IMG/VR virus record: IMGVR_UViG_3300033407_000005
Coordinates: 1-64,000 of that record
Length of the DNA stretch: 64,000 nt
Reading direction: 5' to 3' (one strand)
Source of the DNA: a virus
Taxonomy: Duplodnaviria > Caudoviricetes
Shown here: positions 20,748-57,978 of the stretch, one piece after another
Numbering within the stretch: the stretch's first letter is position 1
How the letters are laid out: the number at the start of each line of letters is the position of its first letter
Translations under genes and position numbers: made by a program
The notes under the pieces: generated by a model
What the model was told of the DNA's origin: nothing
Database searches by the model: none
The model's input: only the letters and a program-made list of their open reading frames with translations

Positions 20748-21215
20748 ATGCGCACCAAACGGCTGTCGAAAGAGCAGAAGTTACAGCTCCCCGCAGTGCT
20801 GGCCGCAATCGGCGGCGCCGCGACTATCGACGAGCTGGAAGAGGCATTTCAGGCCGGGCATCGCGCGCTCGACGATCACCCGTTCTCGACGGCTTGGAAT
20901 GAACGCGGCAACGCGATGCGCGCCCGCGGTTGGGATTTGATTGAAGCTGATCCTCAAGGCCACCTGATCCCGCGCCTCGGCGAGCGCCATAAGTTGTCAG
21001 TCGCTGGCGAGACGACGCGCGTCGGGTACGGACATAACGCCGCCGGCGTGCGGTGGGTTTGGGCTGAAGCCGAAGCGTGGGCTATCGGGCACCTGAAATC
21101 GCATGGCGTCGCCGAAGAAACGGCCAAGACCGTCTGGGGATGGTGCTTTGAATATCCCCATCGCGCTCTAAAGGTTCTTCGCAGGCGAGTGAAAGAACCA
21201 TGCTTATCCGGTTGA
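20748..21215 (+). CDS. hypothetical protein; last codons and stop come from cassette A1 left end
   Basis: GGAGGAGG RBS; ends KEP|CLSG*. Confidence 0.65.
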   Translation: MRTKRLSKEQKLQLPAVLAAIGGAATIDELEEAFQAGHRALDDHPFSTAWNERGNAMRARGWDLIEADPQGHLIPRLGERHKLSVAGETTRVGYGHNAAGVRWVWAEAEAWAIGHLKSHGVAEETAKTVWGWCFEYPHRALKVLRRRVKEPCLSG

Positions 21216-21633
21216 CACCCACACTACCTCTAGGAGTTAGGAAATGTCCGAAACCCGCGAATTTCCGACAGCCGCCATCGCCTCGCTTTCGACAGGCACC
21301 TTGCTGTGCAAGTTCAGCGACATACACGAGGCCGCTGAGTATTTGATGGGCCACCCAATCTGGACGCATCAATTCGCCGATAAGCAGCTTTTCGCTGATA
21401 TGCGAGCGATGATCATCGAACAGTGCCCTGGAATGCCCGCGAGAGACGGCCAAATCACGCCTGAGAACTGGCGCGAGAAGCTCGCCGAGTTGGTCGCGGA
21501 ATTAGGCCCCACACAGACAATCCGCAAAGGGGCCGGGTTGACCGCGATGCTGCCGACTGACGGCATCCCAGAGCACGTCGAATTGCTCGTGGTCAATGTT
21601 CCTTAAGGGTGGGTAACAACCGGATGAAGCATG
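21199..21633 (+). mobile_element. non-autonomous IS1595-like cassette A1 (ISSod11-type ends)
   Basis: left end CATGCTTATCCGGTTGACACCCA, degenerate right end ..CAACCGGATGAAGCATG; 8-bp GAAAGAAC at 21191 and 21634. Confidence 0.8.
21244..21606 (+). CDS. hypothetical protein, cargo of A1
   Basis: AGGAG RBS, lower GC, fills the cassette. Confidence 0.75.
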   Translation: MSETREFPTAAIASLSTGTLLCKFSDIHEAAEYLMGHPIWTHQFADKQLFADMRAMIIEQCPGMPARDGQITPENWREKLAELVAELGPTQTIRKGAGLTAMLPTDGIPEHVELLVVNVP

Positions 21634-21641
21634 GAAAGAAC

Positions 21642-22233
21642 CATGCTTATCCGGTTGACACCCAAGAAACCTTATACCCACTACATCTAGGAGCGGCAAA
21701 TGAACGTCAAAAAGCTCTACGAAATCCTTCGCGAGACAACTGTCCAACTGCGCAAGGGTGAAGTTTACGAAGGGACGCCAGAGCTTGTGGAACAAGCCAA
21801 GCGTGGCGACGAATTGAAGGGCGGCGGCGTTCTTGAAGTCTACGCCATGCCTCATGTCGCCGATGCCAATCCCGACATCGAAAAGGTCGATCTCGAATTT
21901 CTCGTAATCGGCGTCAATAAGGCCATCGCTGAAACGCGTAAGGCCGAATTGATCGAAATTCTTAAGGATTATCCTCAACCGGAGCGCCTTGCGGGCGGCC
22001 CGTCCTACATCGAAGTCGGTGCAGAGATCGGCGATCAAGGCGCGGCCTTCCAACTTTTTGCGCTCGGGAAAGTGCTCGGGCTTTGGGACGTAATCACGCC
22101 CGCGACGATGGGATTCGCGGGCGCGGAAGCGCGCCAGATGGCAGGCAGCGGTTTTGTCATGATGACGGGCTTCAAAGTGGCGGCCTAGGGGTAGTGGGTA
22201 TGGGAGCGGTTGGGTGTCAACCGGATAAGCATG
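21642..22233 (+). mobile_element. non-autonomous IS1595-like cassette A2 (ISSod11-type ends)
   Basis: perfect 23-bp IR (21642-21664 / 22211-22233); GAAAGAAC at 21634 and 22234. Confidence 0.88.
21700..22188 (+). CDS. hypothetical protein, cargo of A2
   Basis: AGGAG RBS, lower GC. Confidence 0.8.
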   Translation: MNVKKLYEILRETTVQLRKGEVYEGTPELVEQAKRGDELKGGGVLEVYAMPHVADANPDIEKVDLEFLVIGVNKAIAETRKAELIEILKDYPQPERLAGGPSYIEVGAEIGDQGAAFQLFALGKVLGLWDVITPATMGFAGAEARQMAGSGFVMMTGFKVAA

Positions 22234-22243
22234 GAAAGAACCG

Positions 22244-22558: not shown

Positions 22559-22587
22559 CATCCACGACCTGTCGCCAGGAAAGGAAG

Positions 22588-23103
22588 GGGAATTATATAG
22601 ATGACTTCCTCTGCCGAAATTTACGCCATTTCGCTCTGGCAGCCGTGGGCATCCCTGATCGCGATCGGGGCCAAGCCATTCGAGACGCGCGACTGGTTCC
22701 CGCCGAAGTGGCTTATCGGGAAGCGAATAGCGATCCATGCCGCAATCAAGGCGATGCCGCGAGACGCGGAGGATCAACACGATTTCACCGAGGCGTTCGG
22801 CGGCCGAGGGTGGCGGGCCGTCGTGCCGAAGGGCGCGATCGTATGCACGGCGATCCTCGCTGGCGCTTACCAATGCGGCCATTCTGACCGCGAGAGCGTG
22901 AACGTGGTCCGGGCGATAACAGGATCGCGGGCACTTAACCGCATCGCGCTCGATACGTTCGGGGACTATGCGCCCGATCGTGTCGCGTGGTGGCTGACGG
23001 ACATCGAGCCGCTTGATCCGCCCATCCCAGAAAAGGGGCATCAAGGTTTTTGGAAGTTGAACGGACTCCTGGCATGACGCAGGTAGTCAAGTATGTAATT
23101 CCC
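22588..23103 (+). mobile_element. non-autonomous IS1595-like cassette B1 (ISNwi1-type ends)
   Basis: 19-bp IR with 3 mismatches (22588-22606 / 23085-23103); AAAGGAAG at 22580 and 23104. Confidence 0.82.
22601..23077 (+). CDS. ASCH-domain protein, cargo of B1
   Basis: AISLWQPWASLIAIGAKPFETR, IAIHAA, GAIVC, P.KGHQGFW. Confidence 0.9.
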   Translation: MTSSAEIYAISLWQPWASLIAIGAKPFETRDWFPPKWLIGKRIAIHAAIKAMPRDAEDQHDFTEAFGGRGWRAVVPKGAIVCTAILAGAYQCGHSDRESVNVVRAITGSRALNRIALDTFGDYAPDRVAWWLTDIEPLDPPIPEKGHQGFWKLNGLLA

Positions 23104-23116
23104 AAAGGAAGCACCC

Positions 23117-23419
23117 ATGACCAAAGCCGACATGATCACATTGATCGCCGCCTACTGCGGCATTTCCTCCCGAGCGCGCGCCGGCGAGGCGCTCGATGCC
23201 ATCCTCCACGAGATCGCCGGTGAATTGGTCCTTGGCAGGCGGGTGATCCTGCCGCATGTCGGCATTCTGGTCGCCACCGGGCCGATCGGCGCCCGCAAGG
23301 GGCGCAATCCGCGCACCGGCGCGGCGATCGAGATAAAGGCCTGCCGGCGCATCCGGTTTCGCCCGACCAAGTTGCTGAAGGCGAGGCTCGGCGCAACCAT
23401 CCCGACGGCGGCGGAATAG
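23117..23419 (+). CDS. HU/IHF-family DNA-binding protein
   Basis: MTKADMI..RKGRNPRTGAAIEIKA..FRPTKLLK. Confidence 0.9.
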   Translation: MTKADMITLIAAYCGISSRARAGEALDAILHEIAGELVLGRRVILPHVGILVATGPIGARKGRNPRTGAAIEIKACRRIRFRPTKLLKARLGATIPTAAE

Positions 23420-28190: not shown

Positions 28191-28213
28191 ACGAGCACCG
28201 GCATTCTAAATTT

Positions 28214-28551
28214 GGGAATTATATACATGACTTCCTCGAACTCAGGAGAAAAGCAGATGCTTGACAAGCTCGGTAACGTCATGCGCGGCGCGGAAATTGA
28301 CCGCGAGGTTATAGACAGCGGTCTCGCGGTCCTCACGCGACAGGTGCGCGAAACATGGCTTGCGACCGACTATCCAAAGGCTATGCGCAGTGATGGCGCT
28401 CAATTTAGGCACGCTTGCCTTCACGCGACCAAGGCGATCGGCAAAATCACCGCGTTGATCGATCATGCCGATCACGAACGCCTTGACGACCCAAGAAGCC
28501 CTGGCCGCGAGCCTAGGGCCATTAGGCGAGGAAGTCATGTATATAATTCCC
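28214..28551 (+). mobile_element. non-autonomous IS1595-like cassette B2 (ISNwi1-type ends)
   Basis: perfect 25-bp IR GGGAATTATATACATGACTTCCTCG; CTAAATTT at 28206 and 28552. Confidence 0.9.
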
Positions 28552-28580
28552 CTAAATTTAGTCCCTTGACCGCCAATTGA
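28227..28580 (+). CDS. B2 cargo, probably truncated; reads through the right end
   Basis: ATG inside left IR; last residues encoded by IR and flank. Confidence 0.5.
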   Translation: MTSSNSGEKQMLDKLGNVMRGAEIDREVIDSGLAVLTRQVRETWLATDYPKAMRSDGAQFRHACLHATKAIGKITALIDHADHERLDDPRSPGREPRAIRRGSHVYNSPKFSPLTAN

Positions 28581-57890: not shown

Positions 57891-57900
57891 TATAATTCCC
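57891..57900 (-). mobile_element. solo ISNwi1-type end
   Basis: reverse complement GGGAATTATA. Confidence 0.5.
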
Positions 57901-57978
57901 CCTTCCAGATACGTCCGCGCAGTTTCCTGATCCGGGAACATCGCGAAAAGCTGAAAGGTTGAAAGGTTGCTGGACTAA

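Follow-up and report, generated by a model that had tools for sequence, protein, structure and literature searches.

An ASCH-fold gene in an IS1595-type mobile insertion cassette of a phage, with its only apparent start codon inside the terminal inverted repeat

Phage genomes are tightly packed and had been assumed to tolerate few transposons. Scattered in mycobacteriophage genomes are MPME1/2, mobile elements of about 440 bp that are bounded by inverted repeats (IRs) and contain a single ORF. In integrons, gene cassettes that lack a translation initiation region are expressed by way of a short ORF and translation initiation region (TIR) located in attI. Siguier, Gagnevin and Chandler are said to have described, in 2009, insertion sequences (IS) of the IS1595 family that carry passenger genes ('transporter IS'). 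IS1595 elements proper have a terminal GG. The family is marked by 8-bp target site duplications (TSDs), a Zn finger and a DDE domain, and terminal IRs ending in GG are stated for its eukaryotic Merlin relatives (PMC8101967). Mobile insertion cassettes, the definition of which we take from PMC3913671, include MIC231 of IS231 (Bacillus cereus) and the qnrD and qnrS2 mic elements described there.

The window analyzed here is a 64,000-nt stretch of a 75.7-kb IMG/VR virus record with an estimated completeness of 84%, from an uncultured phage with a G+C content of 65%. In it a 516-bp element, B1 (22588-23103), sits in the ribosome-binding site (RBS) of the phage HU gene. The left terminal IR of B1 (22588-22611, + strand) reads GGGAATTATATAG ATG ACT TCC TC and comprises a weak Shine-Dalgarno (SD) sequence, GGGA, an AU-rich spacer, an in-frame TAG and an ATG at 22601. 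The right terminal IR (23081-23103, - strand) belongs to another subtype, with C at position 9 and TTG at positions 14-16. The IR 22-mer, with at most 3 mismatches, is present at 3 places in the window against 0.00 expected in shuffles, and for its 12-mer tip there are 4 occurrences where 0.05 would be expected. As the first-pass annotation had stated, AAAGGAAG flanks both ends of the cassette; the copies at 22580-22587 and 23104-23111 match exactly (8/8), the chance of which is about 1.5e-5. Only CACCC separates the right copy from the ATG of an HU-family DNA-binding protein gene (23117-23419, + strand) that lies directly downstream of B1. The 100-aa HU ORF is intact and matches PF00216 (Bac_DNA_binding) above the cut-off over residues 1-91 (E 3.4e-17, 62.9 bits). 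The downstream copy had also been identified as the RBS of this gene, and its position 5 nt before ATG 23117, the beginning of the HU match at residue 1 and the predicted anti-SD pairing (-5.8 kcal/mol, spacer of 6 nt) bear this out. The sequence features that the annotation had reported as observed were confirmed throughout.

In a scan for the exact IR pattern, viral contigs yielded 81 stretches and bacterial genome contigs 59, the latter from Acidobacteriota, Alpha-, Beta- and Gammaproteobacteria, Dehalococcoidia, Spirochaetota, Planctomycetota and Patescibacteria. The 22-nt IR is nearly invariant across MAGs from very distant bacterial phyla (L177-L235), from Patescibacteria to Acidobacteriota. 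This distribution suggests one transposon family that travels on the phages or prophages of very different hosts. When an element was defined, in viral and bacterial contigs, as a pair of ends with a TSD match of 7/8 or 8/8, we found 48 distinct elements of 161-4062 bp that share the IR of B1, and 45 of these have an exact 8/8 TSD. Since the TSDs differ at the 48 sites, the family moves. The larger siblings (L081, L066, L061 and others) encode proteins of 305-334 aa, usually beside a passenger gene, and those of L081, L066 and L061 are transposases with PF12762 DDE_Tnp_IS1595 (E 2e-44 to 7e-47) and PF12760 Zn_ribbon_IS1595. No transposase was found in B1, in its sibling cassette B2 or in the whole 75.7-kb record, except for a 25-aa scrap of an IS1595 transposase N-terminus (57900-57974, - strand). 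This scrap is 60-67% identical to L066, L081 and L061 and ends at a GGGAATTATA 10-mer, the continuation of which departs from the IR.

B1 and B2 possess the 8-bp TSD of the IS1595 family (AAAGGAAG and CTAAATTT, respectively), and their IRs begin with GG, as GGGAATTA; the sequence GGGAATTAT also fits ggnnatTAT, which we take to be the ISfinder end consensus of the ISNwi1 group. The Zn-ribbon and DDE_Tnp_IS1595 transposase is missing from both cassettes and present in siblings with the same IR, and because B1 lacks it, B1 is filed as an IS1595 derivative and not as an IS. With two bracketing IRs, a target duplication and no transposase gene, B1 has the makeup of a mobile insertion cassette, and since the same IR is found on elements with an IS1595 transposase, it is best read as a transposase-less cassette of this kind. 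By their sequence, B1 and B2 are classed as IS1595-type mobile insertion cassettes in a phage, a known kind of element.

The two ends of B1 have different relatives. Its left IR has 1 mismatch in 25 nt to ends of L019, which bears a transposase, and of L202, which carries a methyltransferase gene. The closest ends to its right IR (2 mismatches in 25 nt) are those of L016, L030, L055 and L199, and both ends of L030 match its first 22 nt exactly, including the C at position 9. The occurrence of two subtypes in one element suggests that two elements were combined to form B1 or that cargo was swapped by recombination. The two arms (22588-22610 and 23081-23103), each of 23 nt, are an imperfect pair, 83% complementary, and with ends of different subtypes B1 may no longer be mobile. 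Inspection of the consensus IR (96 ends; for example window 28530-28551) also reveals, when the sequence is read outward, a TATAAT without mismatch at a distance of 4 nt from the tip, and the TTG variant read inward contains TTGACT, which resembles a -35 element. The IR may therefore carry promoter parts; the right IR of B1 has TGTAAT in place of TATAAT and is without a -35 partner.

Neither an empty HU site nor a second copy of B1 was found in viral, metagenome or genome contigs or in cultured phages. A search with the HU protein for such loci gave no match in viral, metagenome or genome contigs, the relatives of a 162-aa neighbor protein were not syntenic, and patterns representing the HU RBS and start and the junction of IR and ASCH had no match in viral contigs. 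With blastn against cultured phages, the sole match was a conserved 108-nt stretch of the ASCH gene. The insertion of B1 is consequently deduced only from its IRs, its TSD and its family.

Like the mic elements, B1 consists of a passenger gene bracketed by two IRs of a known IS family, with no transposase, a target duplication and presumed mobilization in trans. It is unlike MIC231, whose parent IS231 belongs to the IS4 family, in having ends of IS1595 type and a phage as its host replicon, and it is unlike mic elements in general in that its ORF has no non-coding margin, starting inside one IR and stopping 3 nt before the other. With the passenger-bearing IS of the IS1595 family it shares the 8-bp TSD, IRs that start with GG and siblings that possess both transposase and passengers, although B1 and B2 themselves have no transposase. 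The resemblance to integron cassettes is functional: B1 has no predicted promoter, is nearly ORF only and apparently depends on the boundary sequence for its translation start. However, integron cassettes depend on a tyrosine recombinase and attC, whereas the B1 family uses a DDE transposase, IRs and a TSD, and the start codon of B1 is fused into the coding sequence itself. Finally, B1 resembles MPME1/2 as a very small, IR-bounded element with a single ORF in a phage genome, but the latter have one fixed ORF and no link to IS1595, whereas the family of B1 has other ends and swappable cargo.

The cargo of B1 is an ORF of 158 aa (22601-23077, + strand) that extends across the element, with its ATG in the left IR and its stop 3 nt before the right IR. 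It matches phrog_3193 (E 2.6e-30), and its match to the Pfam ASCH model PF04266 (E 0.078, 14.1 bits) falls under the cut-off of 21.2. It has 449 homologues, some of which carry a precomputed PF04266 assignment or the JGI name 'activating signal cointegrator 1'. An AlphaFold (AF2) model built on 23 sequences has a pLDDT of 91.6, and in a Foldseek comparison with the PDB the 13 best listed matches are all ASCH proteins (CXorf40A/EOLA1, the TRIP4 ASCH domain, ASC1 and ZmASCH). The top 10 have a probability of 1.00 and TM scores of 0.55-0.62, and the ZmASCH matches have TM scores of 0.44-0.47. The predicted structure thus confirms the ASCH beta-barrel fold of the cargo. All 32 residues that are invariant in an alignment of 23 homologues are retained, and the gene is intact. 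The first 4-5 residues (MTSS/A) derive from the IR side. In the model residues 1-6 are unstructured and the first strand begins at residue 7, which makes the MTSS leader a loose tag.

The first-pass annotation had placed the start of this gene within the left IR, and indeed the ATG (22601-22603) occupies IR positions 14-16. It is immediately preceded by an in-frame TAG (22598-22600), and no other ATG, GTG or TTG is in frame ahead of the conserved IYAISLWQPW core. Judged from the reading frame, ASCH has no start available to it but the ATG in the IR, and we infer that translation actually begins at 22601. The suggestion that homologues of the protein might lack the MTSS N-terminus held for the closest of them (76-86% identity), all of which begin with MNEIY, MKEIY or MMIEMY. 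The comparison with L238, a gene that is 80% identical and has no IR, is particularly informative. Here the start is GTG ACC GAA ATT TAT, behind AAGGAGG and overlapping the stop of the upstream gene, so that in an IR-free context the gene uses a GTG and an SD of its own and not the start and upstream sequence of B1. The DNA homology between B1 and L238 sets in immediately behind the 24-nt IR of B1 and within 1-2 nt of the native start codon of L238. None of 160 fetched loci with ASCH homologues has an IR pair around the gene. A single IR-like end, GGGGATTATATAGATAACTCCC, for which no partner was found, precedes by 34 nt a different ASCH gene (L274:1963-2441, 35% identity) that has an AGGAGG and a GTG of its own; this IR family may have acquired ASCH more than once.

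Is the ATG in the IR a peculiarity of B1? Among 96 element ends, 33 have ATG at IR positions 14-16 and most of the others have TTG. Frames of at least 80 codons are opened by 19 of the 33 ATG ends and by 2 of the 63 other ends (Fisher 2e-9); these family statistics treat related elements as independent and so overstate independence, and the count includes three long frames that run antisense to a transposase and are probably artefacts. For the transposase-less elements we took the longest stop-to-stop frame and disregarded start codons. ATG is present at 11 of 12 in-frame open ends and at 4 of 17 others (p 5e-4). Seven elements have it solely at the ORF-proximal end, and no element has it solely at the distal end. 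The tally files B1 itself wrongly, since an antisense frame is 8 codons longer, and the figures for transposase-less elements are therefore conservative. Of the 19 ends with G at position 13, which yields TAG-ATG, 18 also have A at position 14 and 13 launch long frames (p 1e-7), although this variant may mark a lineage rather than selection. Taken as a set, these sequence counts indicate that ATG at IR positions 14-16 is strongly tied to ends that open long ORFs.

Individual elements show the same arrangement with other cargo. The MTSS leader of the B1 ASCH protein is common to the N6/N4 DNA methyltransferase of L202, which has no internal start within its first 40 codons, and a MTTETD leader is shared by the unrelated cargos of L075 (phrog_12600) and L194 (DUF1643). 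At the other end, the stop codons of the cargos are found 17-26 nt away from the far tip, next to the distal IR or inside it, and in L041 and L179 the distance of 17 nt puts the stop at the TAG of the consensus distal IR. Some of the IR-started ORFs may not be genes, namely those of L011 and L055, which have no homologues. Methyltransferase-like passengers were seen repeatedly: the cargo of L202 (L202:5005-5742, - strand) matches PF01555, and in L061 a protein with a DPPY motif lies beside the transposase (L061:4130-4642, - strand).

An origin of the ATG in the IR as a leftover transposase start was considered and rejected, as the transposase genes, whose products begin with MSKSTIST…, have their starts 33-92 nt inward from the element ends. 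The frames of 550-586 aa that run from the ATG in the IR in L019, L081 and L066 are antisense to the transposase. Antisense frames of 528-586 codons, opposite both transposase and passenger, were noted at L019:9054-10732, L081:179-1899 and L066:853-2623 and also in L071 and L197, and three of them start exactly at the TAG-ATG of the IR. Although they recur in diverged elements, they are probably an artefact of GC-rich sequence.

The sibling cassette B2 (28214-28551, + strand, 338 bp) has perfect IRs of 25 nt, which share the IR sequence of B1, and a TSD, CTAAATTT, at 28206-28213 and 28552-28559. It had been offered as a second case of a cargo that starts with MTSS inside its IR. Both of its IRs do contain ATGACTTCCTC, and the ATG of the IR is in frame with the cargo. 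However, the homologues of this cargo, and an identical public protein, begin at M11, that is, at an internal ATG (28257) with AGGAGA 7 nt upstream (-7.4 kcal/mol), and B2 was accordingly rejected as a second example. The likely cargo ORF is thus 28257-28580 (+ strand). It is 3'-truncated relative to its homologues: about 45 conserved C-terminal residues are missing and the frame runs through the right IR into the flank, to 28580, features that mark B2 as a truncated remnant. The broader claim, that the element end works as a portable translation start, consequently stands in part; the IR appears to supply the sole start for ASCH and its ATG is tied to ORF-bearing ends throughout the family, but B2 does not belong with these cases. 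The sequence comparisons argue that a start codon embedded in the IR is real in the case of ASCH and that it recurs within the family. No description of an IR-embedded start codon was found in the set of papers searched in full text.

The annotation had gone further and proposed that captured ORFs draw on a duplicated host RBS for their expression. In its full form this model would make the duplicated RBS the chief source of expression, and targeting of the RBS would then belong to the mechanism of the family. Two observations favor it. In B1 the left TSD and the IR tip form an SD-like run, AAAGGAAGGGGA, whose predicted duplex with the anti-SD (-8.6 kcal/mol) is stronger than any other in the region, and two other cassettes in the window end just before a start codon; these, A1 and A2, are stacked at 21191-22241, have another type of IR (CATGCTTATCCGGTTGACACC…) and the TSD GAAAGAAC, and their right end is 2 nt before the ATG (22244) of the next gene. 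A1 and A2 carry an internal RBS, and not a start in the IR. The paired part of the duplicated AAAGGAAG, however, ends 11-12 nt from ATG 22601, a spacing that is longer than usual. More generally, the TSDs of the 48 elements are 82% A+T, compared with 43.5% in the flanks, and most have no SD-like core; most IR-launched cargos elsewhere likewise have AT-rich TSDs, such as AAAAATTA, AAATATTT and TTTTTATT. Insertions directly before an ORF start (13 of 48) are not enriched over random positions (33%), a control that is noisy in GC-rich DNA. What is present in every copy is the IR tip, GGGA, with weak anti-SD pairing (-4.2 to -4.8 kcal/mol) 8-9 nt before the ATG. We therefore regard expression from duplicated host RBSs as an unlikely account of the family. 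The base composition of the TSDs indicates that this IR family picks A/T-rich 8-mers as targets; in a phage of 65% G+C such sites are probably mostly intergenic, which may explain the position of B1 before HU and of A1/A2 before the next start. The duplicated RBS may help B1 alone, but to judge from the other TSDs it is not the way in which the family works. The duplication of the RBS is an accident of target choice, ordinary transposon biology.

It might be argued, on the other hand, that the ATG is simply a base bound by the transposase that happens to spell a start codon, and that ASCH is a decaying passenger that is translated poorly or not at all. The IR is conserved at both ends regardless of the ORF, TTG is the commoner triplet (T is found at position 14 in 60 of the 96 ends), the IRs of B1 are mismatched, the cargo of B2 is truncated and the Pfam score for ASCH is below the cut-off. 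A decaying passenger, though, would hardly be expected to keep every residue that is invariant in the 23 homologues, to be predicted with confidence to adopt the ASCH fold and to fill the element between the IRs, and a chance triplet does not account for the strong tie between the ATG and ORF-bearing ends or for its asymmetric placement within elements. We consider this explanation improbable, even more so than expression from duplicated RBSs.

As a whole, the evidence favors, with a probability that we put at roughly 0.75, a model in which B1 is a non-autonomous, single-gene mobile insertion cassette of IS1595 type whose ASCH gene is launched from the ATG in the IR. According to this model, a transposase supplied in trans most likely pasted B1 into the A/purine-rich AAAGGAAG that serves as the SD of HU. 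The 8-bp duplication, as is evident from the sequence, left the HU SD intact, and would have placed a second copy before the cassette. The native SD and start codon of ASCH would have been replaced by the left IR, in which case translation must begin at the ATG of IR positions 14-16, yielding the MTSS leader. Ribosomes would presumably be recruited by the weak GGGA of the IR with its AU-rich spacer, possibly strengthened by the duplicated AAAGGAAG. Because no promoter or terminator was predicted beside B1 in a consensus scan, transcription is likely to occur by read-through from the co-directional early operon. IR-launched cargo would then be a recurrent design of one IR variant, that with TAG-ATG.

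A bolder form of this proposal, which we advance tentatively and with appreciably less conviction than the model for B1, is that the TAG-ATG variant (…TATATAG ATG ACT WCC TC…) is a complete portable translation initiation region, with which bare ORFs could be swapped, moved and expressed at any A/T-rich site in any phage. Its parts would be the GGGA, a 9-nt AU-rich spacer, the upstream in-frame stop, the ATG and a leader of 3-6 codons, and the distal IR could provide the stop.

These results describe a widespread IS1595-type family by which accessory genes are transferred singly between phages of many bacterial phyla, with cargos that include an ASCH protein, DNA methyltransferases and DUF1643. 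They also bear on annotation, since such genes may be overlooked or given a wrong start by gene callers and an N-terminal MT(S/T)S tag marks IR-launched cargo. If the IR is indeed a built-in start signal, this would explain how cargo that consists only of an ORF stays expressed wherever it has landed. The family would then be a transposon analogue of integron cassettes, and its IR a compact natural expression tag for phage engineering.
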